Assembly (NCBI GenBank): GCA_022616075.1 | Contig: JAKEFK010000024.1 | Span: 572 to 64,571 of the forward strand | Length of the DNA stretch: 64,000 nt | Direction of reading: 5' to 3' | DNA from: a bacterium | GTDB lineage: Bacteria > Acidobacteriota > HRBIN11 > JAKEFK01 | Shown: positions 4,247 to 64,000 of the stretch, one piece after another | Layout: every line of letters starts with the position of its first letter | Numbering within the stretch: the stretch's first letter is position 1 | Translations under genes and position numbers: made by a program | Notes under the pieces: model-generated | What the model was told of the DNA's origin: nothing | Database searches by the model: none | Seen by the model: the letters and a program-made list of their open reading frames with translations, nothing else

Positions 4247-4342
4247 TCATGCCATGCTGATTATCGAGCCTTCATAGATATGGCGTCTTTCTGCTGAACC
4301 AAACCGGATTTTGGTGTCAGAGTGACGTATGGACTGCCGCGA

Positions 4343-41575: not shown

Positions 41576-41584
41576 GGAGTACAT

Positions 41585-43174: not shown

Positions 43175-43178
43175 TCTC

Positions 43179-46268: not shown

Positions 46269-46724
46269 TTATAAACGCTGCCACCATTGTTTCACTATCT
46301 GCCAAAATCCGGTTTTTCCTTTGTCGGTTTCCGACATCACTCGGGTATCTTCTGCTGCACCCTCGATTGCCATCTCACCGATGTTGAAGTATCTCTCTTT
46401 CTCAGAGCGGTCGTATGCTCTTCCGGCCTCAATCTCGTTTCTAGACCATCGAGCAGCCCAATGAACATTGTTATTCGTTATCCAATAATGAGACTGGCAC
46501 TCGAAGCTCCAGTTCCCGATCGAAGGATGAAGCGAAATCGTCTTGCCATCAAAGATGAGCTTCCAATCCGTTGGTCCCAGCGGAGTAACGACTTCTTTTC
46601 CACAGCCACAGCAGCACTTGTGGACTACGGTTGCATACCTAATCGATATGTAAAGGGTCTCCTTCTCGATATGATCGGGAATAGATTCGACGAATTCATG
46701 TTTAAGAACTCTCTTCCTTCTCAT
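46269..46724 (-). CDS. Prokaryotic E2-like (UBC-fold) protein
   Basis: HPS-x7-C spacing (HPSIGNWSFEC) like the eukaryotic E2 HPN...C signature. Its stop/start overlaps the E1 gene. Confidence 0.5.
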   Translation of the reverse strand: MRRKRVLKHEFVESIPDHIEKETLYISIRYATVVHKCCCGCGKEVVTPLGPTDWKLIFDGKTISLHPSIGNWSFECQSHYWITNNNVHWAARWSRNEIEAGRAYDRSEKERYFNIGEMAIEGAAEDTRVMSETDKGKTGFWQIVKQWWQRL

Positions 46725-47911
46725 TAACGCATGTCTTCATTTGTGAGCAAGTCGCAATCGATCGTATACGTGCTGTGATGTTCACGCTTGAGGTCGCGAT
46801 AAAAGCCAAACAGTTTCTTCCATTTGATGACAGCTAAGGCGGCGTTGAGAGCGTTGAGATCAGCAATCTGGATATTCGTATCATATTGATTGTCTCTACC
46901 ACCATCCGAAAAAGAGATCCTGTTACGAACATGGTCACGCTGTTTCGGCGTGCTGGTCGTGATCCTTAGAATGCCGCCCAATGAATCATCAGTCACATTA
47001 ACACCCATACCGACGTCGATGAACGGAACGCCGCAGTATTCGAGCATTTCCACGATCATCTTTTTTGCCGAGCTGCGATCCAGGCAAAGAAAACCGAAGT
47101 CCATGTTTTGCAGTTCCCCGACATTCCCTGCATCTACATAAACCGCATGATCAATGACACCCCGGTGCATTTTCGAGTACAGACTCTTCAGGTAGACAAC
47201 CTTAGGTGGCTTCGTCATCAGGTCGTCAATCGAAGGAGCGCCCGGGGATCTGAAAGCGTTGTGCTGCAAAAAAGCATCTCCGTCAAAAAGGTGGATTTCC
47301 TTTACAGGGGTCTTAGCAACAAGATCCAGCACGTAACAGCCGGTTCCGCCCAACCCCACGATTGCAATCTTTAGTGGTTCTAGCTTTTTTGCGACGAAGT
47401 CAATTTCGGCCCTGCTTGAAGCGGTATCGATGTAATTGAATACAGTTTCCTCATTCTCTTTATCTGGTTCGATAACGGGAAACGTTTTTGACGTAATCAA
47501 TGGATCGATCAACTGAGCCGGGCCGGATATGATTGCGACATATGTGGTCACTTTAACGTAATAATCCTCATACAATCCGCTCGGCTTGGGCTTCGCTGAG
47601 AACCTGTGTTGGACCACGACGCCCTCAGCGAGGGTGCGGTTTTCACATGAATTTCTGATCTGCTCTATTTCCTTTCCATCCGCATTGCAGGGGTAATCGC
47701 CGACAAAATGAGCAACATGATCCTCAGGACGTGAGGTTATATCGCCCGCCAGGGTTAATGTTGAGACCAGAATTCCGAGCTTTATTTCTTTGCGGGAGTT
47801 TACATACGGAACATCCTTCACGAGTAAATAGCCGGAACGGATTTGGAGATCATAACCCTCGTCGCGCAGCTTTTTCAGGTCAGCGCTATGACTTATCAGT
47901 TTGCGTGACAT
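46724..47911 (-). CDS. ThiF/MoeB-family E1-like activating enzyme with a roughly 180-aa N-terminal extension
   Basis: Rossmann motif IAIVGLGGTGCYVLDLV...HLFDGDAF typical of E1/ThiF. The N-terminal domain is of unknown function. Confidence 0.7.
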   Translation of the reverse strand: MSRKLISHSADLKKLRDEGYDLQIRSGYLLVKDVPYVNSRKEIKLGILVSTLTLAGDITSRPEDHVAHFVGDYPCNADGKEIEQIRNSCENRTLAEGVVVQHRFSAKPKPSGLYEDYYVKVTTYVAIISGPAQLIDPLITSKTFPVIEPDKENEETVFNYIDTASSRAEIDFVAKKLEPLKIAIVGLGGTGCYVLDLVAKTPVKEIHLFDGDAFLQHNAFRSPGAPSIDDLMTKPPKVVYLKSLYSKMHRGVIDHAVYVDAGNVGELQNMDFGFLCLDRSSAKKMIVEMLEYCGVPFIDVGMGVNVTDDSLGGILRITTSTPKQRDHVRNRISFSDGGRDNQYDTNIQIADLNALNAALAVIKWKKLFGFYRDLKREHHSTYTIDCDLLTNEDMR

Positions 47912-48368
47912 TGAAGATCATTCCATCCTTGATCTTAACTTTTCCTCCAGGCATCAACGTACCTTCTAGGTTCGGATGAGGGCCGCCCTCATATGTGATT
48001 GTGAACAAGATGTTCTCTCCGGTCGGCACAGGGTCGAACGCAAGGGCGACGATTTCATTGAACGACAACTCCTTCTTCGTTACGACTTTCTTTCGGCCAT
48101 TTACGATGATCGTGAATTCCTTGCCCTTGGCGGAACCACTGTGGAAATGCTCGCCATCTTTCAGATGGATTATCTCTTGGTCGTTTGGAATAGGCTGATC
48201 TTCTCTATTGCCGGTAACCTCGCGATATAGCACGAGTCCTGGTTCTATATCGCCGAGCTTATATATGGCCTCGCCTATGGTGGGATTTGGCGATACGTGC
48301 AGCTTCTGATCAATATGAATCCTCACCTCATCGTGTTTCTGGTCCGCTTTCGTTTTTTGTTCAGACAT
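47886..48368 (-). CDS. Multiubiquitin-family (tandem beta-grasp) Ubl protein
   Basis: 160 aa with two beta-grasp-like halves. Operon context with E1 and E2. The C-terminus is ...TQTDKS with no GG. Confidence 0.5.
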   Translation of the reverse strand: MSEQKTKADQKHDEVRIHIDQKLHVSPNPTIGEAIYKLGDIEPGLVLYREVTGNREDQPIPNDQEIIHLKDGEHFHSGSAKGKEFTIIVNGRKKVVTKKELSFNEIVALAFDPVPTGENILFTITYEGGPHPNLEGTLMPGGKVKIKDGMIFNVTQTDKS

Positions 48369-48438: not shown

Positions 48439-48894
48439 TCAGTTGTCCTGCTGGCATAACCGCGCCCGCAAGCGTGAAATGAGTGTTCTTGCGCGGCCCA
48501 CCTTTGTTTTGGTCAATTCGTGGTAGGAAAATCCGCGCGCAATAGAAACAAGAAGTCGCCATTCCGCCACGCTCATGTCGCCCCGGAGCTCTGCCAGACG
48601 AAGGCGAGCCAGCATCCGATGTTCTGCATGTGGTTCGAGCTGCTCTTGAAGATATTTACGCTTGAGCCGCGCATGGTTCCGTTCAACCCAGGAGCCGGTG
48701 GAAATGGCCGTGTTGAATTTGCGCTGAAATTCTTCTTGATCTGCGGGAACGCCGGTGGATTCAACGGTCGCCAGCAAGAAGGCGAGACCGTTTTCAATAC
48801 CCCAAGTTCGGTGAGTTACTTTGCCGCAACGCGCGGCCTGTGATTGGTGCTCCGCATAAACGCACCAAGGAAAAGGTAAGTCTTCCATGTTCAT
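48439..48894 (-). CDS. Hypothetical protein with C-terminal sigma70-region-4/LuxR-like HTH
   Basis: ...MSVAEWRLLVSIARGFSYHELTKTKVGRARTLISRLRARL. First gene of the Ubl/E1/E2 transcription unit. Confidence 0.4.
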   Translation of the reverse strand: MNMEDLPFPWCVYAEHQSQAARCGKVTHRTWGIENGLAFLLATVESTGVPADQEEFQRKFNTAISTGSWVERNHARLKRKYLQEQLEPHAEHRMLARLRLAELRGDMSVAEWRLLVSIARGFSYHELTKTKVGRARTLISRLRARLCQQDN

Positions 48895-49086
48895 CTCCTT
48901 TTGTGGGGATCGCTATTGTCCCCGCGATGACTGAGTGCAGATGAACCTTTTCATTGGCTTGCTGAACCGCGAACCGGAACGCTGTGCCCGATTCGAGGCC
49001 TATACCAGCCGCCTAGCAAGGCCGTTCTGCCCCACAATTATTGTAGTCCAAAATCGCTTAATGTTACAGATGGTTAGAAAAAAAGA

Positions 49087-50988
49087 TCAGAAAGTTGTCA
49101 ATTGCGTCGCATAAGTGTCTGACCACTCCTTTCGGAGAAGGTCGAACATCTGCTTCCGCTCAGGATCCTGCTGAGCCATCAAACTCTGCGCCCGAGCTAG
49201 CGACAGGAGCATCAACTGGAGTGCTACTAAAGTCTGCTGCGCACCATTGAATGTCTGCGGCTCGGAGGCATTATTTTCCGCACTTGTAGGAGCACCCTCG
49301 GCGACTCGCGCGTCCAGTGTCAGCGCAGCATTGCTCAACGGCTCGTAAAGCCGTCCGTAAAATGGATGTGCCGTGTTGATCGTCAGAATGATTTTGCCGA
49401 ATCGTTGATCTACATGATAAAACGGCCAGTACTCGTCATGCTTATAATGTATGATGTGCTTCGAGCTCTTAACGCGCTCAAAGGCTTCCTCATCAGTCTC
49501 CATTTCCCGCTTGAGCATCATCGCGAGAGTACGGAGGTTCTCATCGAGCTGCCGCTGTTCCTCCGGAGTGTTCGGCGTAGGCTCGATCAAGGCCTTTGCC
49601 TGGCGAAGCTCGGCCTCATCAGCCTTCATTTCACCGGCGCTTGGCTTGCTTCCATGGCGTATTACCGTCTGCTCGCTTTGATATTTCTTGATCTGCTCGC
49701 GAAGTGCAGTTATTTCTCCAGATAGCGCTTCAGAGATGTCCTGCAGCACATAATCCTTGGGACGAATGCCCTGCTTATTCGCGGCTACTCCGAATGCCTC
49801 GTCCAACTCGCCTGGGAAATCGATCTGGATGCGGAGCCAGTTCGCGTCACTGTGACGCTTCATGATCTCTGGAATCGTTCCGATGAAAACCTCGCGGTCG
49901 TTCCGCAAAACAGAGACCGTATTGTCGTCGTATAGGTGCAGGTCGTTTTTGCGAACCTTGAGAGGAAGCGCTCCCCAATCTGAGATCGGCAGGGCGTAGA
50001 GGCGAATAGTGACGGGTGCACGCTCGACGTTTTCCGATTCCTGACTGTGGTTTTCGCTCCGCTTCACTTGGATGACCTTAGAAAAAACTACCCGGCTTTC
50101 TTTCACTCTGATCTCAGGAATTCTGGTGTGCCGAGCAGAGACCATGGAGTATGTCGGATCGAAAGGCTCTACCAGCCGATTATTCACGTAGAGTTTTGTG
50201 CCTTTTGCAAGCGCGCGGCGATAGACACGGGACATCTCTTTGATCGCATGCTCACACAGCGTCCGAGCTTTCGCAAAAGTGAGCCGGTCGCACAACGGCA
50301 AATAAACGATCGTACCTGACTTCCCGAGCCTATCCTTGAGTTCGTCCACATCTTGCGCAAAAAGCGACTGCTCGTTTCGATCGGGAAAAGAGAGTGCTTT
50401 CGTCAAAATATCAGAGACCTCACTCGGCAGCAGGTCCATAAGAGTAGGGTCTGGCAGCTCGATGAGGTTTGATTTTTCCTTTCCGATGGCTTCGACATCG
50501 AGGGTCATATTGTAATAGGCTCCCGATTCCTGCCATGAATAAATGTCAAGAATCGGACTCATGCTGAGCGCCGCAGTTTTCATGCCCATGCCGAAGCGCC
50601 CGATGCCGGAACGGTTGTCAAAGACCATGGAACCGCCGAACGATGTTGCGAATTTTAGGACATTGGGTGCCATCCCGTTGCCGTTATCGAGTACCAAAAT
50701 ATTTGTCTGGTAAGCGCCTTTCTTACCAGTCTGGCTAAAATAGACGCGAACTTCGGTGGCGCCCCACTGGATAGCGTTGTCAATATGCTCGCACAACGCA
50801 GACGTTGTGCTGTTATAACCGACATCGCGCAAAGATCTGATGAGTGTTTGCCCGAAAAAGAGCGGTACGGTCGCCTTTTCCTTGATGATCCGATTCAGTA
50901 CAGTCTTCCCGCCGCGCGGGGCATTCTCGCCCCAAACTGGGGTTTGAGCATCAGCTTCCGACGAGGTGGGAGTATTTTGTTCTAGCAT
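49087..50988 (-). CDS. GHKL/MORC-like ATPase (HATPase_c_3 Bergerat fold) with long coiled-coil C-terminus
   Basis: EHIDNAIQWGATEVRVYF, VLDNGNGMA and GRFGMGMK motifs. The start at 50988 has an AGGAGA RBS. Confidence 0.7.
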   Translation of the reverse strand: MLEQNTPTSSEADAQTPVWGENAPRGGKTVLNRIIKEKATVPLFFGQTLIRSLRDVGYNSTTSALCEHIDNAIQWGATEVRVYFSQTGKKGAYQTNILVLDNGNGMAPNVLKFATSFGGSMVFDNRSGIGRFGMGMKTAALSMSPILDIYSWQESGAYYNMTLDVEAIGKEKSNLIELPDPTLMDLLPSEVSDILTKALSFPDRNEQSLFAQDVDELKDRLGKSGTIVYLPLCDRLTFAKARTLCEHAIKEMSRVYRRALAKGTKLYVNNRLVEPFDPTYSMVSARHTRIPEIRVKESRVVFSKVIQVKRSENHSQESENVERAPVTIRLYALPISDWGALPLKVRKNDLHLYDDNTVSVLRNDREVFIGTIPEIMKRHSDANWLRIQIDFPGELDEAFGVAANKQGIRPKDYVLQDISEALSGEITALREQIKKYQSEQTVIRHGSKPSAGEMKADEAELRQAKALIEPTPNTPEEQRQLDENLRTLAMMLKREMETDEEAFERVKSSKHIIHYKHDEYWPFYHVDQRFGKIILTINTAHPFYGRLYEPLSNAALTLDARVAEGAPTSAENNASEPQTFNGAQQTLVALQLMLLSLARAQSLMAQQDPERKQMFDLLRKEWSDTYATQLTTF

Positions 50989-51369
50989 TTCGATTCTCCT
51001 GTTTTGTGACCACCGGCTGTTCGGGGTCAGAGTCGAGAGCATAATGGCTCTCATTAAATAAGTAGTTGAAAACGCCCAAAAGTTACATTGTGGCCAGAAA
51101 TCGCGTGGAATTTTAGAAGTTTGATCGTTATTGTAAGAATGAGTGACAACGGTTTTCTGCGCGACTGATTCAATCTTTCGATAACGTCTCACGCATTTTG
51201 CTGCAGCCCGAGCGCATTTATGATTTCCGTTGCAATTCTTGTTTTCTCTTTGCTGTTGGAATCATATCCCAGACGAAAGTCTCGGAAATCATTATCTCCG
51301 GAATAAGGACCATAGACTCCACCGTTTGGGGAAGGTACTTCGTAACACAGCCCATTCTTCGAAGCTCCT

Positions 51370-52473
51370 TTACTTGTTTTGTCTAAACATCAATATGTTC
51401 GAATCTGCAGTGGCTTTCGATCTTGATTGTGATTTTTCTCTATAGCCCTCAATAATGGTTTTAAGCATGCCTTCGCCCAATTGCGAATGTGAAGACAGCT
51501 GGGCGAGATCAATAGGAACCCCGTATATAGCCTCGATCATCTGTCGAATTAGCCGTGGTTTTTCTGCCGGTATGTCTAGGCTTTCAGGTTCTTTCATTCT
51601 CCACCCATTAGCGGATAACTGCTCAAATAAGTAACGATATTGTCGCTCCGAAATAGCTCGCACATCAAAGGCTCGCCTGATTAAGGCTTGTATGGAAACG
51701 CCCCATTTTGGTTTTAGCTGTGCGATCCTAGAAAGAGTAAGTGGCGATACAAAATCTCGAACGATGCCTTTCTGAGGCATCAAGAACTCTGCTGCGAACT
51801 GGTTGGCACTCTTCTCCTGTTCAACGCCTAGTCTTTTCTTGTGCCCCAAAATAAGATGGCCTAATTCGTGAGCAATGGTTAGCCTCATCCTGTCAGCAGG
51901 TCTGTTCTTGGAAATCGCAATGAGAGGCACTTGGTCTCCAGGAGTATCATGAACGATTTTGCACGAAAATGCGTCACGTCTTGGAAGCTCGACTGGCAGA
52001 GCCAAAATCAAAACTCCAATTCGTTCTAAAGTATCTATCAAATTCACAATGGGACCATCTTCGGTGAGAATACAATGCATTCTAGTTTCAATGGCTGCTT
52101 GCTGAGGATCACTCGATGGGGATTTTGGGAGAGAGGGGGGGACTGGGCTAATCTTGGCGGCGAGCAGTGTGAAAAGCTCGTAGAGTACTTCTGCATACCG
52201 CTTAGCCTCTACCAATTCCCGTCTTGTCATCGTGGCGTGTGCCCTAAATACAACGGCGCTTGAGTCGAACTCAATCAAAGGATCGTTGGAAAAAAAGGAA
52301 AGAGGGAAGCGGGTGTATCTTGAAATATCAGATATCAAATCGGCGGAAGGCTCTTTGAATCCTCCTTCAATCTGAGCTATCGCGCTCTGAGAAACTTCAA
52401 TTTTGTCAGCCAATTGTTTTTGAGTCCACCCATGAAGTTCCCTTGCTTGTCGTATGCGTTTTCCGCTATACAT
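51370..52473 (-). CDS. Fused XRE-HTH plus ImmA/IrrE-family zinc metallopeptidase (CapH/CapP-like or DdrO/IrrE-like damage-responsive regulator)
   Basis: N-terminal HTH (IRQARELHGWTQKQLADKIEVSQSAIAQIEGG) and an HEXXH motif (HELGHLILGH). Confidence 0.8.
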   Translation of the reverse strand: MYSGKRIRQARELHGWTQKQLADKIEVSQSAIAQIEGGFKEPSADLISDISRYTRFPLSFFSNDPLIEFDSSAVVFRAHATMTRRELVEAKRYAEVLYELFTLLAAKISPVPPSLPKSPSSDPQQAAIETRMHCILTEDGPIVNLIDTLERIGVLILALPVELPRRDAFSCKIVHDTPGDQVPLIAISKNRPADRMRLTIAHELGHLILGHKKRLGVEQEKSANQFAAEFLMPQKGIVRDFVSPLTLSRIAQLKPKWGVSIQALIRRAFDVRAISERQYRYLFEQLSANGWRMKEPESLDIPAEKPRLIRQMIEAIYGVPIDLAQLSSHSQLGEGMLKTIIEGYREKSQSRSKATADSNILMFRQNK

Positions 52474-52479
52474 TTGTTT

Positions 52480-53061
52480 TCATCCATTTTCTTTCTTTTT
52501 GTCCTCTTGTTTCGGTTCGATAGGAAGTTCTCCCGGATCATTCGGAGGTGGAGGCGCGGAAGAAGAAAGACCGGGATTTTTTATTTCCATTATCCAATGA
52601 GCTTCAACGGATTCTTCGTCAGCGTATTTTGGACAAACCAACCAAAGCCGAGAAAGGTTGTGAAGTTTATCAGAATTCCAGATGATGATGAGTTTTAGCG
52701 GGTCAACACCGGTAAAGAGAAGCTGTTGGCAATACGCTTGTCTAGGGTCGGACTTTGACGCCGGCGGATTTTGATCATTTGCTTTCCAAATTCTGATACC
52801 GTAATTTGGAAGTTGGAGCCACAAACCAGCGTTATTGATATGCTCCATCTTGAGATCTGCAAATTCTTTCTTCTGTAAATAGTTCTTGGCATAAGCTCGA
52901 ACATTGCCAGCCCAAATGGTACCATCAAATTCGAGATCGTCAGCATCAACTATTTCTTTTGATTTCATCGCGCCCCATTCCAAGGCGTAATAAATCTCGC
53001 GCAGGAGCCAGTCCAATTCTTGATAAGTTTCTTCAGGATTAGGAAAGTGCGGTAGGTTCAT
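52480..53061 (-). CDS. Hypothetical protein (about 193 aa) upstream of the HTH-ImmA regulator and probably co-transcribed with it
   Basis: Start MNLPHFPN with a GAGGT RBS. No recognised domain. Pro-rich and acidic tail. Confidence 0.4.
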   Translation of the reverse strand: MNLPHFPNPEETYQELDWLLREIYYALEWGAMKSKEIVDADDLEFDGTIWAGNVRAYAKNYLQKKEFADLKMEHINNAGLWLQLPNYGIRIWKANDQNPPASKSDPRQAYCQQLLFTGVDPLKLIIIWNSDKLHNLSRLWLVCPKYADEESVEAHWIMEIKNPGLSSSAPPPPNDPGELPIEPKQEDKKKENG

Positions 53062-53130
53062 CTTCTTATTATTACCTCGTATCGGTAATAAAATTACCAG
53101 CAAATTACCATTCTGTCAATGGCTCCCCGC

Positions 53131-53190
53131 ATTGCTGCACTTTATTCCGGATTGCTCGACTTTATTCTGCGTTGCCGCGCGGTTTATTCC
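53131..53190. repeat. Three tandem 20-bp direct repeats (ATTGCTGCACTTTATTCCGG / ATTGCTCGACTTTATTCTGC / GTTGCCGCGCGGTTTATTCC)
   Basis: Exact 20-bp periodicity, in the 400-bp non-coding gap between brxL and the 52480..53061 operon. Confidence 0.7.
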
Positions 53191-53499: not shown

Positions 53500-55548
53500 T
53501 TACGTCAAGCCAAGCGATTTAAGCGCTGCCGTCATTGGATCGCTGTAAAAGATCGGGTCGACGCGTTCCATGATGTCGGCCGGAACGGCAAGGAAATCGC
53601 GCTTGTTCTCTATCGGAACCATTGCACGGCGAGCACCATTTTCCTTTCCTAATTGAAGGGCTTGGTCTAAGGAGCGCAAAGCCTTAATGTTCCCCTGAAT
53701 GCTCAGATCTCCAAGCACCATTAGCGCTGGCAAAGTCGAAGATTTCTTCAATGCAGAATATATCGAGACAACAAGCGCAACGCCCGTCTCTCCGGTGACG
53801 TGATTGTGCAATAAATCGATGACCTCGACATGGAAGTCAGTCGTATCCACTTGCTGAGCAATTCCCATATCCACCTTATGACCCTGTATGTAGGAGAACG
53901 CGCGACGAAGCGACTCGCGCATCCCGGGATCGATTGCACCTGACAAACTCAGCTTTCCAGTTCCAGATGAGCAACCGACCTCCAGTCGAAACAAACCAAC
54001 TTTTCCTTGATCATCAACGGAGGCCGTGTAAAGCGACCCGGGTGCAAGCGGATCCGCAGAAATCAGATTCCGCCCGCCTTCCTCCGGAACACCGACGTAA
54101 CGCTCCTCACCTGTCTCCTTTTCTATATAGGAGAAAGATGTGTTGAAGAATTCAAATGAACCCATCTTCTTCAACTGCTCTTTGACCCTTCGCCTTCCTT
54201 CCAGTGCGAGCTCCAATATTTCTTGGAGTTCGTCTTTCGTCATCTCGCCATGGGGATAAATTAGTTTGGCCAGCCCTGCAACGGTTTTTCGTGATGCTTT
54301 AACATCACGAGATTTCAATTGCGATCCAAGAGAAAAATGCGTATCAATAATCTCGGTGAAATTGCGGCGGCGGAGCTCACGAAGCGCCTCAGCAAGATAG
54401 TCCACGACGAATCCATACCCTGAAGTGAACATGCTGGTCTGCATTTTCGGAATCTCCCACCCAGGAACATAAAAATGAATGCGGTCCAGAAAGGCGGTGT
54501 CTTCCCGGATCACATCCGGCAAAGGAGCAAATAAATGCGACGACCGGACCATCACATCAACCGCCTGGTGGATATTTCCAAAGAATGCAACCGAAGCAGT
54601 GCCGCTCAATTGCTCTTTTCCTCGCGCAAAACTTCCTGATTCGCAATAGGTCTTCAGCGTGGTAATCACTTCTCGCGGCATCTTCTGCAGGTCGGCCACT
54701 TCATCAAATGCGACCGCATCCCACAAGCCAACCAATCCAATCTTGTTCGTGCTCATGTTGTAGAAAAGATTGGCAACGGTTGTAGGACCAGTTAGAAGAA
54801 TTGCGTACGGAGAGAGTTGCTGGTACGCGAACGATTTTCCGGTTTCGCGGGGTCCCAATTCAATCAGGTTATAATTTTGCTCGCATAATGGCACGAGCCG
54901 CATCAGATAAAGGAGTTTCAACCGCCGGCTCATCCCGATGGGTTCTAGCCCGATTGTGCGAACTAATAAATCGACCCACTCTTCTGATGTGAAACCTTCT
55001 CGCCCGTTAAAATATTCCTGGATATCGAATGTAGCCACCTGAATCGGCTTCAGATCATCAATCCAAAACGGACTCCGGCGACCCTGAACCTGATCATCAT
55101 ATTCATGGCGTAATTCGACCTCGGACCAAACGCCATCCACGAGAAGACGATCGAAATTCCGCACGAACCGGTCCGGGACATGAATGAAGCGGTTCCCGAA
55201 GTTTACGATTTCCGCCCAGTACTTATCATCTTCAGCCAGATACCGAACTTTGACTTTATCAATGAGGATGTGTCGTCCTTTTTCTTTGACAACGGACTGT
55301 GCCTTATTCGCTTCATCGGGGCGCACGAAATTTTCCGCAAGAGTCGAGTTGACGATTTTTAATCCTGCTTCGACTGCGACAGGATCATCGGTTGCACAGT
55401 ACTTGCCTAACAAGTATTCCAGAACATAAACCGGCACTGTTGATCCGAACTTGAGCTTGCGCACCAATTCTTTTCGGACGACCTTACCGGCGAAAGTTTT
55501 GCTGACCTTGGCGTCCAGCGCGTCCGGAACCGACTGGTTAGAAAGCAA
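53500..55548 (-). CDS. brxL: BREX Lon-like protease BrxL
   Basis: 682 aa. The N-terminus (...KVVRKELVRKLKFGSTVPVYVLEYLLGKYC) and a C-terminal Lon protease-like domain are typical of BrxL. Confidence 0.8.
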   Translation of the reverse strand: MLSNQSVPDALDAKVSKTFAGKVVRKELVRKLKFGSTVPVYVLEYLLGKYCATDDPVAVEAGLKIVNSTLAENFVRPDEANKAQSVVKEKGRHILIDKVKVRYLAEDDKYWAEIVNFGNRFIHVPDRFVRNFDRLLVDGVWSEVELRHEYDDQVQGRRSPFWIDDLKPIQVATFDIQEYFNGREGFTSEEWVDLLVRTIGLEPIGMSRRLKLLYLMRLVPLCEQNYNLIELGPRETGKSFAYQQLSPYAILLTGPTTVANLFYNMSTNKIGLVGLWDAVAFDEVADLQKMPREVITTLKTYCESGSFARGKEQLSGTASVAFFGNIHQAVDVMVRSSHLFAPLPDVIREDTAFLDRIHFYVPGWEIPKMQTSMFTSGYGFVVDYLAEALRELRRRNFTEIIDTHFSLGSQLKSRDVKASRKTVAGLAKLIYPHGEMTKDELQEILELALEGRRRVKEQLKKMGSFEFFNTSFSYIEKETGEERYVGVPEEGGRNLISADPLAPGSLYTASVDDQGKVGLFRLEVGCSSGTGKLSLSGAIDPGMRESLRRAFSYIQGHKVDMGIAQQVDTTDFHVEVIDLLHNHVTGETGVALVVSIYSALKKSSTLPALMVLGDLSIQGNIKALRSLDQALQLGKENGARRAMVPIENKRDFLAVPADIMERVDPIFYSDPMTAALKSLGLT

Positions 55549-58099
55549 GCGATACCTCCACAGGATTCGGTTTTACGAGTTCCATTCCGGTTAACGAATC
55601 AATCAGATGGATGGTAACGGATCCTGACGCTGGCGCCTTTTCGGTAAGCATTAAAGCAATGGTATTGGGTTCCACGCTGTTCGGGCTTTGCGTGGATTCG
55701 CGTAGCGCAAAATCTGCCGTTGTCTGGTTGAACCCATAGCTGCCACTGACAGGAATCGAGCAACTCTCGTTTCCGACCCGCGCTTCCACCTTGATCCGGG
55801 GCCATTCCATCTCGAGCACTCGCGATTCCCCTGTAACTGTAACGGAAAAAAAACGGCTGGTAATTTTCGGAGTCCCAAGTGCCAGCTTCCATGAGATGCC
55901 TTTCACTGTGTCGTAATGCTGGGTCACTTTAGGGCGGGCTGTCAGAACTGGGATGATGAGTTCTTGAGGGGATGCCCCGCCGTGGAAATAAGAAACCGAT
56001 CCGCCCGAACGGAATACAGCCAGGTTCAAGGGAACGGCGATGTCAAGATCGCTGTTGATGCCGAACTTCGAAAGCGGTTCCATAAAATAGCTTGGACTGC
56101 TAGCGCCGTTTCGCCCTACCCAGACGCGACGATGCAGCAGCGCGGTCTTTCCTCCGGGCGCATCAATCTTCATCGAGTCGTCCATTTCTTCTCCATACAG
56201 AAATCCATGATCTGCAGCAACGACGATATGTTCGACTCCTACCTCCGCCAGTCGCCTCATCGCGATACAGAGCTGACTTAAAACATCATCCATCATTTGC
56301 CTGGTCGATGTAAAACCTTTTTCTCCACTGCTGTCGATTTCCTGAGAGGTCAGCAGGACGATAAATGGGCCGCTCGGCACTTCTTTCAGCTTCCTTTTTA
56401 TTGCTTTGTATTCTTCCAGCTTCAAAACCACAACCGGCATATCGATGTTTGACGCAAAGTATTCGATCCGCTTTTCCCGATTTGCGAGGACTTTATCGCC
56501 CATTACGACTTCCAACGCCTTATTGGGAGCACGAAGTTGCATGGATTGCCGGGCCCTTGGTAACAAAGCGGCCATCCCAACTTCAGTAACCGCCGGAAGC
56601 GTTCCAATCACAGCATTGAGCTGAAGATCAAACTCCTTTCCCAGTAGTCCGTTCAGCTCCGTCGCCATTTCGTAGCGTAATGCGTCTACGAAAATGTATG
56701 CGGTTTTCTTCTGATGAAAATGAGGTTCTACAAAAATCTCGAAAACTTCACTTTGCTTGTAAAAGTCCGGTATATGAAAAGAGGCATCTTTCAAGGCTCT
56801 TAAAAAAGTTTCAGCTAACAGAGTGGCCGCTTCGTGGTGTGCTTTTCTCGCGGATGAGACGAGCTTGTCAAGATCATCCGGCAGCTTTAAATGCACTTCA
56901 AGGTTGGACGTTTGCTTTTCCAGATAACGATGGAGAGTATCCATCCGGTGCCATTCATCGATATAAGAACGGACTATGGATGAGGCGTTCTTCTTGCCGA
57001 CCTGTGATTGAACAAAAGAGCTGAACTGAATCAACTGAGCGGCAAGGTTAAGAATATTCCACTGGCCCTTGAGTTCTGGGTCCTGCGTAGCCCAGAAACC
57101 CTTCGCTCGTTTGCTAGCAAAGGCCAATACGTCCTCACCAATCCGCTCGATTAGTTTCTTTGCAGTATTCGTTAATAGGATAGCGTCGATCTTGGCAAAT
57201 GTTTCCACTTTCTGGCAGATTTCAAATGGTAAAGACATGCTGTTGACGTGCAGTGACTTCTCCACTTGGGCCGCCGCTCGTTTGTAACTTTCAGCGAGAC
57301 CAAGCTGTCCACGCCAGGATGCCGCCAATTCAGAGCATTTCCTCAATGCGTACGCATCGATCGTTCCGGCAAGAGTCACGAGCGCCGGAGGGATATCATC
57401 AGCCAGTGAATAAAGGAAATCAGCTATCAGAACGTGTCTCGCAAAGACGCTTCTCAACTGTTCGGGCGATTTTTCTGTTTTGATCGGAGCTTTATATATT
57501 GAAGAGAGAGAATTAATGAGCTCTGATGACGCTTTTTTGTCGAGTAACACTTGGTCGTATCTGTCAGATGAGACAAACTTCAATGCTGCTTCTTCCGGCA
57601 TGTCGACACCAAAAATCACATTGAGTACCGGGGACAATCGGAGATCACTCCCTTCGTCGGCGAGGCGTTCTAGATCCGCAAGTTTGAGTTGTCCACTATC
57701 GATTTGTTTTTCCAGTTCATCCAATCGATGATCCGGAATGCGTCCCTTCAGAGATCTTCTTGCAACTAATGATAATCGTGTGTTCCGTAGCACGGAACGA
57801 TCCCCCGGTTGCGCGACCGCTCCCAGCGCTGCCAGCTCAGCAAGCGCCTGTTTCGTTTGATCGCGATGGAGCGGAACATAAACGAGCATGTGAGGACGAT
57901 GCGGTCCGCGTAAGGCTTCTTCGATCTGCGCGCGCAGATCGTAATAGCTTGTGTTATACCGGGCAATCTTACAAGACGGAATTTTGAGAGTCTCAATCAG
58001 TGATGAGTACGTTTGGTCAGGGTCAAACCATAGAACAATTCCTTGCTCGGCGACCTGCCGGGCCAACATCTCCTGCAGATGATCTGCTATGACTCCCAT
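55538..58099 (-). CDS. pglZ: BREX alkaline-phosphatase-superfamily protein PglZ
   Basis: 853 aa. PglZ-domain motif region (IFVDALRYEMATEL...) in the C-terminal half. Confidence 0.8.
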   Translation of the reverse strand: MGVIADHLQEMLARQVAEQGIVLWFDPDQTYSSLIETLKIPSCKIARYNTSYYDLRAQIEEALRGPHRPHMLVYVPLHRDQTKQALAELAALGAVAQPGDRSVLRNTRLSLVARRSLKGRIPDHRLDELEKQIDSGQLKLADLERLADEGSDLRLSPVLNVIFGVDMPEEAALKFVSSDRYDQVLLDKKASSELINSLSSIYKAPIKTEKSPEQLRSVFARHVLIADFLYSLADDIPPALVTLAGTIDAYALRKCSELAASWRGQLGLAESYKRAAAQVEKSLHVNSMSLPFEICQKVETFAKIDAILLTNTAKKLIERIGEDVLAFASKRAKGFWATQDPELKGQWNILNLAAQLIQFSSFVQSQVGKKNASSIVRSYIDEWHRMDTLHRYLEKQTSNLEVHLKLPDDLDKLVSSARKAHHEAATLLAETFLRALKDASFHIPDFYKQSEVFEIFVEPHFHQKKTAYIFVDALRYEMATELNGLLGKEFDLQLNAVIGTLPAVTEVGMAALLPRARQSMQLRAPNKALEVVMGDKVLANREKRIEYFASNIDMPVVVLKLEEYKAIKRKLKEVPSGPFIVLLTSQEIDSSGEKGFTSTRQMMDDVLSQLCIAMRRLAEVGVEHIVVAADHGFLYGEEMDDSMKIDAPGGKTALLHRRVWVGRNGASSPSYFMEPLSKFGINSDLDIAVPLNLAVFRSGGSVSYFHGGASPQELIIPVLTARPKVTQHYDTVKGISWKLALGTPKITSRFFSVTVTGESRVLEMEWPRIKVEARVGNESCSIPVSGSYGFNQTTADFALRESTQSPNSVEPNTIALMLTEKAPASGSVTIHLIDSLTGMELVKPNPVEVSLAF

Positions 58100-58101
58100 C
58101 T

Positions 58102-61100
58102 TTACTTATCCAGCCCGTGTGCGATTGCATAGCTCTTGTTTTTCTTGCACGCTTCGATGACCCGCTGCGGCCAATACCGCATGGCAGTGTATGCCCAATC
58201 ATACTCGCCGGCTTTCAATTCCTCCCACGCTTTCTTCGGTTCCGGTTTCCAAGAAGGCATCAGGAAATGAATAGGCGCTGCGTTCAACAGCACTCCATCA
58301 TCAAACTCCGGTTTCCATCCCACAACTTTGTGTTTGCCGTCCACTCCTGTGATCTCGACGTTAGCGGCTTCCTGGAGTTTTTTATCAAACTGCTTCAAGT
58401 CCTCGAGCAATTCCGCCAGCTCAGATATTTTTCTGCCCAACAATGCTTTCTCCTTTCCCGTTTTCTTCGGTTCCATCTGTTGTGCCTGTTGCAAGTCGGA
58501 GGTTGCGCGGTTGATTCGGCCACCTAAGTATCGGTTGCCTCTTAATAAGGATAGAGTATCGCCTGTCAGCTTTTCGTAAAAGGCGAAAACGTTGTAACTC
58601 TTCTCCGGTGATTGGAATAGCCAATAGATTGGACGCTTGCGATAGCGGCGAATATGCTCTTTGAAGAAATCACCAAGCAAATACTTTTCGAGATCTCCGC
58701 GCAGAGCACCGGCTTTACCGGTTGCCGTCTGAATGATCGCTGTTGCTTCCTTATCCTTATAGATCTCGGTCAGAATGCGGGGTACTCTTACTGCAAGATC
58801 ATCTGGATGGCCTTCTTCCAGCACCATGAGTCCATCCGCATCAGAAAGCTCGCGAAGTCGCTTTGCAGTTTCCACAGGGAATCTTCCGCAACCAAGTTCA
58901 CCTTCAATTCCCGGCTGAAATCGGCCTAATGTGATTCCAACAGCGTAGCTGATCCATCGGAATGCGAGTTCCCGCTTTGATAAAATCTCTGCTTCAGCTT
59001 TTTCCTCTTCTTCATCACCGTTTGATTCTTCTTCGCCGGATGCTGCCGGTTCAGCAAGTTCTGCCTCAATGGCTTTGCGATCCTCTTCTCCGATTTCGTA
59101 AAGTCGATAAACTTCTTCATCAATCCTTTCTTCAATTTCTTTCAGTTGCCCGCGTCTCGCTTTGATCTGTTCGATTCCGTTTACCCAGTCATGAGGTGCA
59201 ATGAAATCGTAAGTCGTTTCATCATCTTCGCTGCCCTGTTTTGCAATAGACACAGTCTGTTCAGAAAGCGATTGCAGTTTGGAACTCGCATGTTGAGGCA
59301 TTGGTAGTCGGGCAAGATCACCTACCTGGACATGAACCGTGGGATTGATCAACTTCAGTGCATACTGAGCGAACTGCGAGTTCATTACACCTAGTACATG
59401 ATAAACATCTTCTGGAAAAGCAGAGGACCCGGAAACATCGAAGATGAATCCGCCGGGGGACAACCGGGCGCTAAAGTGGCCGCCGGTTAAATCGGTCCAC
59501 GTAACGCCACGACGGAAATAGAATTCCGTCGATTTAATAATTCTTGACCAGCCTGAATTGCCGTATAACGGGTCGGCCCAAGCCTTTATTTCGTGACCAT
59601 TCTTCCCGTAATTAATGACATAATCTTGATTTCCAAACCATTTCTTGAATACTCCTCCTTTATTGTACGGGTACCATCTTTCAACTCGCCGCTCGCACTC
59701 TTCTCCATCTTGGCAATCGAAACCGATATTTGAAGACTTCACTTCCCACCAAAATTTCAAGAATCTGAAGTTGTCTGCAGTAGCCAAACCCTGCCTGGGC
59801 TCAGCGAATTGGTCAAGTGACAATGAAGTTTTGAATACGTTGCGTAGCTTTTCCGTGATCCAATACACCCATGGAGCTCCAGAAATGGCCGCGAAATCAC
59901 GCTGTCGGTATTCGTACACAAGTGCATCAGGTTCACCGGCTTTTCTGCGCCCGATCGCATTTTCGAACGCGAGCTGCTTCGCCACCGCATCGGGCTCCTT
60001 GACCAAACGAAAGTAAACACCGATAGAATTCTCCCGGTCATTCGGAAACGATTCACGCCGCAAAATAAAAGCTGTTGTATTTACTTTCTCACCTTGCACT
60101 TCTGGAAAGGCACGTGGCCCATGATGCGTCATCGCTTCGATCGCAAAGTTTTCGAGCAGCCACTCACGAAATTTTTCATAGCTGCTGATAAACATGAACG
60201 ACTGCTGTGTTACCATGGCCATTCGGCCGTCTTCATTCAATAGCTCGCCGCAACGCTGAATGAATGCTGCATAAAGATCACCCTTGCTGGCCGGGTACTC
60301 ATCCTTCAAAAACTGGACCATCTCAGGATTCATATTTCGGCTCGACATGTAGGGGGGATTCGTGAACACAACGTCGTATCGTTGTGATAGAAGTTGCAAC
60401 AGTCTCAAACCCTTGCTCGTTTCGCCAAGGAAAAACGACTCATCAGAGGCTTTTTTTTCGGCGTACGAATCAACAACACGTTTAATTTCCGGACCCGCAA
60501 TGCCTTGAAAATGTTCTTCAAGTCGTACGAGCGAACCCATTAATGCACCATCATCAACAGCTCGACAAAAATCCTGCATCAATTTTGTTGATATCTGTTG
60601 AGGAAGCTTGACACCAGATAAAGCCTGCTCCAGATGCTGTCCACGAAACATTGCAACATCAGAAGAGGCAAGATTACTGTCTTTGATTAAGCAATCTCTG
60701 TTTAAGGATTTCGCCCGAATATATAAGGTTAATGCTGACAACTGAACGGCGCGTAAATCGATATCAATTCCGTGGACATTTTTCCCAACGATCGCGGCTG
60801 GTATGTCTCCCTCACGTTCAACCGAAGAATGTTCTGGCCAGCCGGGCCTGCCTGCATTTGCAATCTCTTCACGATACATTTCGGCCAGTAAATCAAACGC
60901 AACCAACCCAAAATGCATCGTTCCTGTTGCCGGATCAAGCACTTTGACATCCGCTACTCGTTTCTCTGTCTTTGCTGCCGGTGTTTTTGGAATGGGAACG
61001 AGGTACTCCATACGGTTTGCAAGCTGAGAATCGGGATGCATTGTTAACCACAAACGGCCCAGGCTATTCTCAACCAAAAATTTAACGATCCAGCGTGGAG

Positions 61101-61848
61101 TGAATACTTGAGTGGCGGCAGGGATATCATCCTTTTGAAATTTCTTCTTTTGCTTGAACACCCGATCGAAGGCAGCGTCCTTTTCCTCCGCAATGAAGAA
61201 CTGATACACCCACCCGATGGTTTCTTCGTTGCCTGGCTCCCATGCCTCTTTTAAATCTTCGCGATTCAGCTCATCGATCAACTGGCGCAATATCTTCGGC
61301 CGCGGGAAAAGGCGGCTCGGGAGATTACCGGCATCAAAAAGCACTCGAATTTCAGAAGCGAGGGTGGCATATTGGGAAAGCAGAAAGTGGCGATAAGCCT
61401 TGTCTCTTGGACCTTCGCTTAGATCATCAACCGGAGTGCTGCCAGCTTCATAGAGCTTGAGATCTTGGTCGTGATCTCCTGAGCCAAGATATTTCTTAAA
61501 TGCGTTCGAGTCATGGTATTTGTTGATTGTTCCGGGCAGTAGCTTCCGGCCTTCAAGCATCTTTAGAGCCACCAACCGGTTCAAGTGAGTGAAAGCTACT
61601 TCTTTAACCAATCTGCTGCAGGCTTGCTCAGCCGTAAAACCCGCATCTTGTTCATCATTGAACAGCTTTTCCAGATCGCTTCGTGTTTGGAGTGCTTCTT
61701 CTGATCTGGCTAAGGCGGGAATTTGATTCTTCGGTAGGAAAGTGCCGTCCGTTGTTAACCCATACACCTGAAGAAGCAGTTCTTCGGCTTCGCGGCTCAG
61801 CAACTCACGCGCCCAGAGTGTTAGTTCACGTATTTTGTCTGTATTCAT
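58102..61848 (-). CDS. pglX: BREX N6-adenine DNA methyltransferase PglX
   Basis: 1248 aa. NPPY catalytic motif (VVFTNPPYMSS), an AdoMet-binding region and a large C-terminal TRD-like region. Confidence 0.85.
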   Translation of the reverse strand: MNTDKIRELTLWARELLSREAEELLLQVYGLTTDGTFLPKNQIPALARSEEALQTRSDLEKLFNDEQDAGFTAEQACSRLVKEVAFTHLNRLVALKMLEGRKLLPGTINKYHDSNAFKKYLGSGDHDQDLKLYEAGSTPVDDLSEGPRDKAYRHFLLSQYATLASEIRVLFDAGNLPSRLFPRPKILRQLIDELNREDLKEAWEPGNEETIGWVYQFFIAEEKDAAFDRVFKQKKKFQKDDIPAATQVFTPRWIVKFLVENSLGRLWLTMHPDSQLANRMEYLVPIPKTPAAKTEKRVADVKVLDPATGTMHFGLVAFDLLAEMYREEIANAGRPGWPEHSSVEREGDIPAAIVGKNVHGIDIDLRAVQLSALTLYIRAKSLNRDCLIKDSNLASSDVAMFRGQHLEQALSGVKLPQQISTKLMQDFCRAVDDGALMGSLVRLEEHFQGIAGPEIKRVVDSYAEKKASDESFFLGETSKGLRLLQLLSQRYDVVFTNPPYMSSRNMNPEMVQFLKDEYPASKGDLYAAFIQRCGELLNEDGRMAMVTQQSFMFISSYEKFREWLLENFAIEAMTHHGPRAFPEVQGEKVNTTAFILRRESFPNDRENSIGVYFRLVKEPDAVAKQLAFENAIGRRKAGEPDALVYEYRQRDFAAISGAPWVYWITEKLRNVFKTSLSLDQFAEPRQGLATADNFRFLKFWWEVKSSNIGFDCQDGEECERRVERWYPYNKGGVFKKWFGNQDYVINYGKNGHEIKAWADPLYGNSGWSRIIKSTEFYFRRGVTWTDLTGGHFSARLSPGGFIFDVSGSSAFPEDVYHVLGVMNSQFAQYALKLINPTVHVQVGDLARLPMPQHASSKLQSLSEQTVSIAKQGSEDDETTYDFIAPHDWVNGIEQIKARRGQLKEIEERIDEEVYRLYEIGEEDRKAIEAELAEPAASGEEESNGDEEEEKAEAEILSKRELAFRWISYAVGITLGRFQPGIEGELGCGRFPVETAKRLRELSDADGLMVLEEGHPDDLAVRVPRILTEIYKDKEATAIIQTATGKAGALRGDLEKYLLGDFFKEHIRRYRKRPIYWLFQSPEKSYNVFAFYEKLTGDTLSLLRGNRYLGGRINRATSDLQQAQQMEPKKTGKEKALLGRKISELAELLEDLKQFDKKLQEAANVEITGVDGKHKVVGWKPEFDDGVLLNAAPIHFLMPSWKPEPKKAWEELKAGEYDWAYTAMRYWPQRVIEACKKNKSYAIAHGLDK

Positions 61849-62705
61849 TTGGGAGGAGGATTATCTAATGCTTGCAAGAAGAACTTTTGGGCCACTAAAA
61901 ACTCTTCCCGGAGTTGAATCAGGCGTTGTGCAACAATTTCATCTAAGGCGAGACAAACATGGCGGGTCGTATCAACCGCCTGAGAGGTCCAGGAAAAGGC
62001 GATAGGCTGTCTGGTTCCTGATTCGTCATTTAGAACTCGATCACTCCTGTGAACGATATCGTTTCTTCTTTGGAGACAGTCTCCGACCACTTTTGTAACC
62101 TCAGCCGCTTTGCGATTTAGGCGAGCACCAACATCTGTCCAAGGATCCTTAAGACCGAGAAGCAACCCCACCGTCTTTAAACCATTAACAGATCCAAGAT
62201 TCTTATTTTGGACGTAGGAAACTATTTTTCTTCCCAAAAAAACTGAACTTTCCTCATCGTTTAACAGACGAAACGCTTCTCCTATTGGGAGCGACAAACC
62301 CTTAAAATATTCCGTCACGTCCTTGTCGCTTGGAAAGAAATCAGCACCCTTCATATCGATAACATCATGTATATGTTCCCCCAGCAGAGTGGACAGGTAT
62401 GTTTCGTAAGCTGTACATGCACTGACAACAGCTTGACGAAGGAGGTTATCAAGTGATTCGCGTTTCAGGGTTGATGGATGAATGCGCGCCTCTTCGCGAA
62501 TGATCCCAACAAAAATCGAATTAAGAATCAACTGCAACATTTCATCGGATCTGGCGCCCACAACACCCCGCAGTTTCGTGAGAAGCTCACTTTCGGTAAT
62601 TACCTTGTCGTTTTCCAACATTCGATACACATCCAACATTAGCTGGGCCAAACGAAAGCTGTTTTCGAAAACCTCTTTAGGCGAAAGAGTAGTGCTTACT
62701 CCCAT
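61845..62705 (-). CDS. Hypothetical protein embedded between brxC and pglX; possible HEPN-like Rx4H motif (RRNDIVHR)
   Basis: 286 aa. 4-nt overlaps with both neighbours suggest translational coupling within the BREX operon. Confidence 0.45.
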   Translation of the reverse strand: MGVSTTLSPKEVFENSFRLAQLMLDVYRMLENDKVITESELLTKLRGVVGARSDEMLQLILNSIFVGIIREEARIHPSTLKRESLDNLLRQAVVSACTAYETYLSTLLGEHIHDVIDMKGADFFPSDKDVTEYFKGLSLPIGEAFRLLNDEESSVFLGRKIVSYVQNKNLGSVNGLKTVGLLLGLKDPWTDVGARLNRKAAEVTKVVGDCLQRRNDIVHRSDRVLNDESGTRQPIAFSWTSQAVDTTRHVCLALDEIVAQRLIQLREEFLVAQKFFLQALDNPPPK

Positions 62706-64000
62706 ATAATTTTTTTGCCCTGTTCTAGTAGATTGAACAAATATTCCTGCAGACGTTCGATTGAGGCTTTCACGTTTTCGATTTCACTCTTCTCCGGATC
62801 TTTCGGGCCTGTAAAGAAACTCGCCAATTGCACTCGAGCAATATCCTCTTCACTTCCTCCTGCTGCAGCCACAATCTCCTGAATGCGTCTCTTTGCTGTA
62901 TTCACCAATCCAGGCAGAGCATCGAGATCTGTATTTAGGACAGCAAGCGTAGCGCCAGTCGTTCGATCTGCTTCTGCGAATGGAGGAAGATCAATCTCTT
63001 CAATAGCCCTTCTTCTCAAAGGCTCCAAGACTGTCTCCGCTTCAACATCTTTGAGTTGCAAGAATTCAGGCATTCCCTGTATTTCCTGAATTGCTTTGTC
63101 ATAAGACTCAAATCGTCGTTTGTGCAGGCCTTCATAGACTTCACGGTACACAGCCGCGATGGAATTGGCGAGGCGCCCGGCATCCTTGAACACGCTCGTT
63201 ATGTCAGGCGATTCCAGGATTGCCTTCAGCTCTGAAACAGCGTCTTGCACGCGGCCCTCCTCTCCTGCCAATCGAAGCGCGGGTGGAAGGGAATCAGTCG
63301 CTCTCCGATACATCCGGATCTTTTCAAGATTTTCGTCGTTCAAAAACTTCTCAATTTGATTGGCGGTGTCGCGCAACGATTGAATTGTTTTCCCCTGGCC
63401 TGAGAGCAATCTGACGCAATCGTCCGAAGCACCCGTGGTTACTGTCTCGAGAGTCTCTCTCCATTCTTCCAACAATCCTGTAAATGGAAGACGGTGCGCG
63501 CGGGCAGTCGCAAGAGCCGGCAACAACTTTTCCTTTTCCACGTCAGCTAATTTCCGGAACGACTCCGCAATCGCCCCTTCCTCGACATCCACTTCCTGTC
63601 CAATCATTGCCTCTAAGTTTCGTACTGCTGTTGTGAGCGTCTTCAAATCGATCGTTTCTCGCGGGGCAAAAGCAGCATTTCGAAAAGCAGGAGTATTGGT
63701 GAATGGAAGTCTGGCGAGAGGCTCCTGATAATTCCGGTAGGTGCGCCCCTGATGCGTTACATCAATGCTGCCTGACCGGAATAATGTGGCAAGGACTAGA
63801 CGGATAACATCCTGGTCCCACCCATATCCGAAATCGCCGAAGTGTTCTGCAATCTGTTTACCGGTTATTTTATTGCCAAACTGATGCTGAGCCTTCAAAT
63901 AATCCAGAATTTCGCGAGCAGATTCGGCATTAGAGTTAAGCACATAACGGTTCCCTTCAGTGGTAACAAGGTTCAGGCCTTCACCACCATGAAAAACAGC
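62696..64000 (-). CDS. brxC: BREX BrxC/PglY, C-terminal portion; continues past the window edge
   Basis: The open frame runs to position 64000 without a stop. Position is immediately upstream of pglX in the canonical type-1 order. Confidence 0.55.
   Translation of the reverse strand, partial: AVFHGGEGLNLVTTEGNRYVLNSNAESAREILDYLKAQHQFGNKITGKQIAEHFGDFGYGWDQDVIRLVLATLFRSGSIDVTHQGRTYRNYQEPLARLPFTNTPAFRNAAFAPRETIDLKTLTTAVRNLEAMIGQEVDVEEGAIAESFRKLADVEKEKLLPALATARAHRLPFTGLLEEWRETLETVTTGASDDCVRLLSGQGKTIQSLRDTANQIEKFLNDENLEKIRMYRRATDSLPPALRLAGEEGRVQDAVSELKAILESPDITSVFKDAGRLANSIAAVYREVYEGLHKRRFESYDKAIQEIQGMPEFLQLKDVEAETVLEPLRRRAIEEIDLPPFAEADRTTGATLAVLNTDLDALPGLVNTAKRRIQEIVAAAGGSEEDIARVQLASFFTGPKDPEKSEIENVKASIERLQEYLFNLLEQGKKIIWE

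Follow-up and report, generated by a model that had tools for sequence, protein, structure and literature searches.

The 64,000-nucleotide stretch of contig JAKEFK010000024.1 analysed here (the window), from an Acidobacteriota genome (GCA_022616075.1), carries a type-1 bacteriophage exclusion (BREX) operon with a gene for a 286-amino-acid (aa) protein between brxC and pglX. This protein is of the HEPN fold, its Rx4H active-site motif is intact and invariant, and sequence comparison assigns the protein to a compact subfamily related to the Pfam RiboL-PSP-HEPN family. The gene is an old accessory that a widespread sub-lineage of BREX-1 has inherited together with its operon. We propose that its product is a latent RNase, an accessory effector that would depend functionally on BREX in a manner analogous to PrrC; we hold this mechanistic reading at about even confidence. 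An earlier annotation made from the letters alone (the sequence-only reading) had given the minus-strand order as partial BrxC, the 286-aa protein, PglX (1248 aa, with an NPPY motif), PglZ and BrxL, and the map of open reading frames (ORFs) together with profile searches confirmed this order.

The only Pfam family that the protein matches is PF18735, HEPN_RiboL-PSP (Anantharaman et al., 2013; PMC3710099), at E 1.5e-5 and 25.4 bits over residues 82–227, a span that includes the Rx4H helix. Among the aligned members of the family, 26 of 27 match PF18735. No further Pfam domain was found in the protein and no NTPase domain was detected. The candidate Rx4H motif pointed out by the sequence-only reading is present at residues 211–222 (LQRRNDIVHRSD; core RRNDIVHR). 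Across 67 related loci the R and the H are invariant (67/67), the N after the R is present in 66, and the consensus is RRNDIVHRADR. Modelling with AlphaFold2 from the alignment of the family gave a confident structure (mean predicted local distance difference test score 88.9, predicted template modelling score 0.84) that is nearly all helix, with one small beta-hairpin at residues 57–70. Its core is the four-helix up-down bundle of the HEPN superfamily, the fold that the sequence-only reading had expected from a structure prediction. In HEPN proteins the Rx4-6H motif is found where helix 3 ends, and a polar residue (N, D or H) follows the R (PMC3710099). The model has the same arrangement: R214, the N after it and H219 are placed at the end of the helix spanning residues 200–219, ahead of the last long helix (237–281).

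Searches of PADLOC-DB 2.0.0 and NCBIfam 20.0 gave no match to the protein at E ≤ 0.1. Foldseek found nothing significant in the PDB (best E 0.16), and profile searching of PDB sequences yielded only a spurious match to FtsX (E 0.011). In PHROGs, one family of unknown function covers the HEPN part of the protein. Because the family is missing from PADLOC and NCBIfam, loci of this kind are now annotated as ‘BREX plus hypothetical protein’.

The family is small: 143 homologues were found at E ≤ 1e-3 in a word-indexed search, and an exhaustive profile search of 1.84 billion cluster representatives retrieved 439 at E ≤ 1e-3, of which many are fragments. This homology rejects a chance ORF. The NCBI annotation lists a 258-aa product (‘hypothetical protein L0156_02300 [bacterium]’) that starts at M29, cutting off conserved sequence. 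The ATG at 62705 is the correct start: conservation among the homologues begins at residue 7–8 (LSPKEVFENSFR), and between the ATG and that point there is no further start codon. No fusion to BrxC occurs among the best 150 matches of the exhaustive search, and no homologue was found in E. coli genomes (DNA search), plasmids, phage records or IMG/VR viral contigs. One match, P0212, covers the N-terminal 65 aa only; a frameshift or a chimera in the gene call is the probable cause, and the match lends no support to a mobile N-terminal domain.

The genomic context of the family was analysed in genomes and metagenomes. Genomes, one representative per species, were searched with the HEPN alignment alone as the query; the genome loci are the best 80 of 95 matches and the metagenome loci 80 of 423, and the clade was defined via two family-specific peptide patterns. 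Genes neighbouring the genome loci were assigned by tblastn with the BREX proteins of the window, and lineages were tallied from the names of the genome records. The 80 loci fall in Acidobacteriota (27), Chloroflexota (25), Planctomycetota (13), Pseudomonadota (5) and Cyanobacteria (2), with three unclassified and one each in KSB1, Binataceae, Rhodothermia, a Clostridia metagenome-assembled genome (MAG) and Desulfobacterales; the BREX-linked clade is present in at least ten bacterial lineages. At 75 of the 76 genome loci that could be assessed, brxC lies directly upstream of the HEPN gene, and pglX, pglZ and brxL lie downstream on the same strand. This context is kept at only 25–27% HEPN identity (L079, L080). 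The sequence-only reading had described an extra gene inserted between brxC and pglX, and its interpretation called for homologues in defence contexts. The gene is indeed there, and the homologues are essentially always inside BREX loci, but the arrangement is not peculiar to this locus; a HEPN gene after brxC is recurrent.

The junction between the two genes is also tight. In 59 of 74 loci the HEPN gene starts 1–5 nt after brxC stops, and the spacing to pglX on the other side is mostly equally tight. The sequence-only reading had reported 4-nt overlaps with both neighbours; in the window this is correct for pglX (ATGA), while the overlap with brxC is 10 nt (ATGGGAGTAA). That the HEPN gene abuts or overlaps brxC agrees with translational coupling. 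In about 11 loci, 0.6–8.8 kb of other genes separate the HEPN gene from pglX; such intruders never come between it and brxC. Those of L016 encode a DEAD/MrfA-type helicase, a NERD-UvrD protein, an RNase H and a TPR protein. The HEPN gene and brxC thus move as a pair, and the site of variable insertion follows the HEPN gene.

Pairwise distances between the HEPN proteins follow those between the BrxC C-termini, with a Mantel r of 0.79 (n = 67 loci), a correlation no weaker than the one between two core proteins. For the 24 loci with all three proteins, the Mantel r is 0.89 for HEPN and BrxC, 0.66 for HEPN and BrxL and 0.83 for BrxC and BrxL (p ~5e-4 each). The HEPN gene has thus co-diversified with the BREX core, which reflects long co-inheritance and is not evidence of physical interaction. 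Its GC content is near that of the neighbouring genes. A recent insertion is rejected on these two grounds.

In a reverse test, metagenomes were scanned with an alignment of the BrxC C-terminal region as the seed; a scan with the single BrxC fragment had no matches, while the alignment-seeded scan yielded loci. The HEPN gene is present at 67 of the 77 assessable BrxC-seeded loci and absent from the other 10. The HEPN-less loci are nested among HEPN-carrying BrxC lineages, with BrxC identities between HEPN-less locus and carrier of 92% (L154 and L025), 82% (L148 and L035), 75% (L145 and L140) and 74% (L085 and L086, compared with L083). The slot between brxC and pglX is empty in L085, L086 and L136. 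Elsewhere it holds other cargo: a Mrr_cat restriction endonuclease (509 aa) in L145, a PDDEXK_3 protein (129 aa) in L157, a TPR protein (219 aa) in L154 and a 208-aa protein without a known family in L131. A comparison of homologous BREX loci had been suggested by the sequence-only reading, and its outcome is that the gene is present in most loci and absent or replaced in nested ones. These several losses and swaps indicate that the HEPN gene is an accessory and not a core BREX subunit, a role that the nested BREX loci without the gene reject. Since sister loci are empty or carry other genes there, the brxC–pglX junction behaves as an exchangeable cargo position.

These results bear on whether the protein acts as an effector at all. 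The HEPN fold might instead bind RNA or nucleotides or have a structural part, as an adaptor that tunes the activity of BrxC or PglX and has no suicide function. Some HEPN domains are non-catalytic binders, such as MtlR and the nucleotidyltransferase-associated HEPN (PMC3710099), and the tight coupling of the gene to brxC would suit a regulatory subunit. However, the Rx4-6H motif is typically lost from HEPN domains that are non-catalytic (PMC3710099), while in this family R and H are invariant and N almost invariant, which weakens the explanation. The repeated loss of the gene, and its replacement by nucleases in sister loci, fit effector cargo better. We regard a purely regulatory subunit as very improbable.

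We suggest the following mechanism for a latent RNase under BREX control. The HEPN protein would be a putative metal-independent endoribonuclease that is held latent and serves as a second-line, abortive-infection (Abi)-type effector of BREX. If the first-line BREX response is overwhelmed, or is blocked by a phage anti-BREX factor, the RNase would be released or activated. It would then cut host and/or phage RNA (tRNA or mRNA), and translation and phage production would stop. The effector role is proposed from what is established about HEPN RNases (PMC3710099) and about defence genes that are embedded in other systems (bioRxiv 10.1101/2024.01.29.577857; PMC12839542). Both latency and trigger would depend on BREX, most plausibly on BrxC, as PrrC depends on the EcoprrI restriction-modification enzyme; PrrC is a latent RNase that is kept in check by EcoprrI and is released when a phage inhibits EcoprrI (PMC3710099). 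We infer BREX-dependent control because the clade is essentially never found away from brxC, nothing separates the pair, and BREX without the HEPN gene occurs.

Several observations weigh against this proposal. A distant branch of relatives, with 19–21% identity to the window protein, the same end-to-end architecture and the motif RRNKIVHEGD, is solitary or lies in non-BREX contexts (L161–L164). In L161 the gene is solitary, beside a transposase fragment. In L162 (8001..8759; 19% identity) it is part of an SNF2-helicase/DUF499-ATPase locus (Hma-type, ‘BREX-related’) and adjoins DUF8426 and an AIPR Abi-like gene, in L163 it lies in a defence-island-like region, and in L164 it is found among housekeeping genes. 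Because these relatives lie outside BREX, this type of protein can exist without BREX, presumably regulating itself, and the case for BREX dependence is weakened. The BREX-linked clade is a sub-branch fixed after brxC, and the statement that the gene never occurs without BREX applies only to the clade captured by the two peptide patterns. Even within the clade, L072 lacks an upstream brxC; it is a 2-kb contig from a low-quality MAG and the sole exception among the 76. Plain co-inheritance in one operon explains the co-diversification equally well. As to catalysis, in P0002, which is the closest homologue (79% identity), the catalytic H is replaced by Q (RRNDIVQRSD). P0002 lies on a 1.9-kb metagenome contig, and the Q represents either an inactivated copy or a sequencing error. 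Finally, the score of the window protein is below the PF18735 gathering threshold of 28.4 bits. More distant relatives exceed this cut-off (31–55.5 bits), and because the window protein is sub-threshold and some relatives are above it, we place the family as a divergent branch adjoining PF18735.

The free-living distant relatives support the main alternative explanation, in which the gene is an autonomous, single-gene Abi-like HEPN defence lodged in the brxC–pglX slot like BrxU or PARIS. Such a protein would sense phage alone, for instance through its N-terminal region of ~80 aa, and BREX would provide only co-regulation and co-transfer. We consider an autonomous defence rather unlikely. The clade adjoins brxC at 75 of 76 loci, mostly with a 1–5 nt gap, and intruders never come between them. 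Moreover, no free copies were found for the clade, whereas embedded autonomous systems are typically common outside their host system (bioRxiv 10.1101/2024.01.29.577857).

A toxin-antitoxin-like addiction module is a further alternative. Here a BREX component would neutralise the HEPN toxin, and the arrangement would stabilise the operon rather than kill infected cells. The asymmetry that BREX occurs without the HEPN gene, and not the reverse, is predicted by such a module, but it is also predicted if the RNase guards BREX. The solitary distant relatives have no visible antitoxin, which argues against constitutive toxicity. We judge the addiction module improbable, and a latent RNase controlled by BREX remains our preferred reading.

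The four BREX core genes of the window (brxC, pglX, pglZ and brxL) are unambiguously identified by profile search, and the type-1 assignment of the sequence-only reading is upheld. The BrxC fragment matches PADLOC PDLC02476 (E 9.5e-35), positions 772–1170 of the 1173-position NCBIfam BREX_BrxC model, and the Pfam BrxC winged helix-turn-helix and helical domains. PglX scores 880 bits against NF033452 BREX_1_MTaseX (cut-off 500) and matches PADLOC PglX at E 5.7e-229, with NPPY at residue 497. BrxL scores 1010.8 bits against TIGR02653 (cut-off 628) and contains the Pfam domains BrxL_N, BrxL_ATPase and Lon_C. PglZ matches PF08665 (E 1.3e-19, 71.3 bits, cut-off 25) and PADLOC PglZ (E 4.4e-99). It falls under the NCBIfam cut-offs for the BREX-1 type A and BREX-6 PglZ models; the window PglZ is therefore considered divergent. 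BREX type 6 reportedly has brxD between brxC and pglX. This type is rejected for the window, as BrxL is present, the PglX model is that of BREX-1, and the product of the 286-aa gene is not an ATPase. A promoter and terminator scan of positions 52900–64000 gave signal at or below shuffle expectation.

Related loci show variation in the rest of the operon. The brxA and brxB genes of the window operon would lie past the window edge, as the sequence-only reading expected. At the related acidobacterial locus L004, brxA and brxB (PF08849 and PF08747) lie directly upstream of brxC (1222 aa). Close upstream of these three genes there are a gene resembling ArdC-N (anti-restriction)/Peptidase_M78 (3613..4476, minus strand) and a Ser/Thr kinase-TPR gene. 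In the Anaerolineae loci L059, L060 (Anaerolinea thermolimosa IMO-1), L061 and L065, the ORF after the HEPN gene matches PglX only from about residue 644. Many Chloroflexota loci, including L016 and L040, also have PglX-like matches upstream of brxC, and the one in L016 is a full methyltransferase of 1306 aa. By this pattern, PglX may be rearranged or split in that BREX variant, or a second methyltransferase may be present. At L067 and L079, pglZ follows the HEPN gene directly. Extra sequence of ~2–4 kb lies between pglX and pglZ at L009, L011, L013, L022, L027, L035 and L049–L053, and may mark a second cargo site of the operon.

Table 1. Features of the BREX operon and of neighbouring genes in the window.
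Feature	Position	Strand	Description
brxC, 3' part	62696..>64000	minus	frame open at the window edge; C-terminal 434 aa
HEPN-domain gene	61845..62705	minus	286 aa, ATG start; ~80-aa N-terminal region, then RiboL-PSP-type HEPN domain at ~aa 82-281
Predicted catalytic Rx4H codons (R214-N-D-I-V-H219)	62049..62066	minus	R214 = 62064-62066; H219 = 62049-62051
brxC stop/HEPN start overlap	62696..62705	minus	10 nt, ATGGGAGTAA; read from sequence
HEPN stop/pglX start overlap	61845..61848	minus	4 nt, ATGA; read from sequence
pglX	58102..61848	minus	BREX-1 adenine methyltransferase, 1248 aa; NF033452 and PADLOC
pglZ	55538..58099	minus	853 aa; PF08665 and PADLOC
brxL	53500..55548	minus	Lon-like BREX protein, 682 aa; TIGR02653 and Pfam
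Gene pair directly after brxL	51370..53103	minus	207-aa protein (weak PADLOC RmrT match, E 1.3e-9); 367-aa helix-turn-helix + Peptidase_M78 protein (PADLOC RmrA, E 1e-67)
GHKL ATPase gene and following gene	48439..51192	minus	701-aa HATPase_c_3 protein (weak MzaB-like PADLOC match), then 151-aa protein without family match
Three-gene cassette	46269..48368	minus	Multi_ubiq PF14452 (47886..48368), DUF6791 + ThiF E1-like (46724..47911), DUF6527 (46269..46724)
Four-gene region	41102..46156	plus	ORFs without Pfam match (41102..41575 and 41585..43174) ahead of Ser/Thr protein kinase (43179..44501), then sigma-54 activator AAA+ protein (44498..46156)

Two of the neighbouring groups resemble defence genes. 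The two genes directly after brxL resemble a toxin-antitoxin or defence regulator pair. The three-gene cassette at 46269..48368 looks like one for bacterial ubiquitin-like conjugation; given its location a few kb downstream of BREX, it is probably a further defence module of the island.

Comparison with known HEPN proteins shows how the window family differs from them. RiboL-PSP-HEPN domains are defined by fusions to endoRNase L-PSP and by ParB operons; the window protein has neither, and its neighbours are BrxC and PglX. In the HEPN-MNT toxins (SO_3166, 5yep; 7ae2), the MNT antitoxin gene is adjacent. The window gene, in contrast, is flanked by brxC and pglX, with no MNT gene, and no ORF of at least 80 aa lies on the opposite strand within it. 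Its product is about twice as long as these toxins and has an additional N-terminal region as well as a large insert. Because no MNT antitoxin gene is adjacent, membership in the HEPN-MNT group is rejected.

The general phenomenon, HEPN RNases within BREX or phage growth limitation (Pgl) operons, is already published, and the window family is unnamed. The HEPN genes described in Pgl operons belong to other families (pEK499_p136, RloC), and their linkage is sporadic (PMC3710099); compared with this, the linkage of the window clade is near-obligate. A survey from 2026 describes stand-alone HEPN RNases in BREX and BREX-related loci as ‘backup suicidal effectors’ (PMC12839542). These effectors and the window protein are alike in being encoded by a stand-alone gene with BREX core genes of one operon on both sides and in their proposed role. 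The accessible text and supplements of the survey make no mention of the window family or of a fixed place after brxC. Nor did we find, in the available parts of PMC3710099, PMC12839542 and bioRxiv 10.1101/2024.01.29.577857, a description of RiboL-PSP-type HEPN proteins associated with BREX. The sequence-only reading had called the gene a possibly undescribed effector. For the family and its fixed position this holds within the accessible literature, but HEPN proteins in Pgl and BREX operons (PMC3710099, PMC12839542) and the slot itself (PMC8565348) were known.

The same slot is used by other systems. BrxU, a GmrSD-like type IV enzyme of pEFER, PARIS of Salmonella BREX and the window HEPN protein are all encoded by accessory genes in the brxC–pglX junction. 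A placement of PARIS in BREX is also given in the discussion of bioRxiv 10.1101/2024.01.29.577857, and BrxU lies between brxC and pglX on pEFER (PMC8565348). The folds and targets of these systems are unlike those of a HEPN protein: BrxU is a DNase acting on modified DNA and PARIS combines an ABC ATPase with a TOPRIM protein, and both are autonomous and common outside BREX. Validation of a ‘guilt-by-embedding’ approach was reported in a 2024 preprint, in which HEC-08, a HEPN protein embedded in Hma, gave phage defence that was lost on mutation of the motif histidine (bioRxiv 10.1101/2024.01.29.577857). The repeated exchange with nucleases in the same slot fits a modular, second-line effector position in BREX operons, and a HEPN gene next to brxC has been retained in soil and water bacteria of many phyla. 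At ~270 aa, the family is a compact candidate for the modular-effector idea, and two cultured hosts carry it, Planctomicrobium sp. SH527 and Anaerolinea thermolimosa IMO-1. In SH527 the HEPN gene lies at about 954832–955653 of NZ_CP195790.1, and in IMO-1 at about 934478–935287 of NZ_DF967965.1.

Among embedded systems, PrrC was singled out as an exception in that it is found almost only embedded (bioRxiv 10.1101/2024.01.29.577857). PrrC, in the EcoprrI type Ic operon, and the window clade are alike in that a HEPN RNase gene lies near-exclusively inside a methylation-based defence operon. They differ in architecture. PrrC has an N-terminal ABC/Rad50-like NTPase and a C-terminal HEPN domain; the 286-aa window protein has no NTPase domain, and membership in the PrrC family is rejected because this defining domain is absent. 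The two are related in sequence only at the level of the HEPN superfamily, and their hosts are a type I restriction-modification system and BREX, respectively, so the analogy is functional only. Tentatively, and with clearly less confidence than in BREX dependence as such, the clade could be the BREX counterpart of PrrC, a latent RNase that BrxC or the BREX complex would hold by physical contact and let go once a phage disables BREX. Release by an Ocr-like DNA mimic or by a SAM (S-adenosylmethionine)-degrading enzyme would be a conceivable, equally tentative example. If the clade is such a counterpart, a multi-phylum BREX lineage would have a built-in ‘guard’, and anti-BREX factors would become triggers of cell suicide, much as inhibition of EcoprrI releases PrrC.

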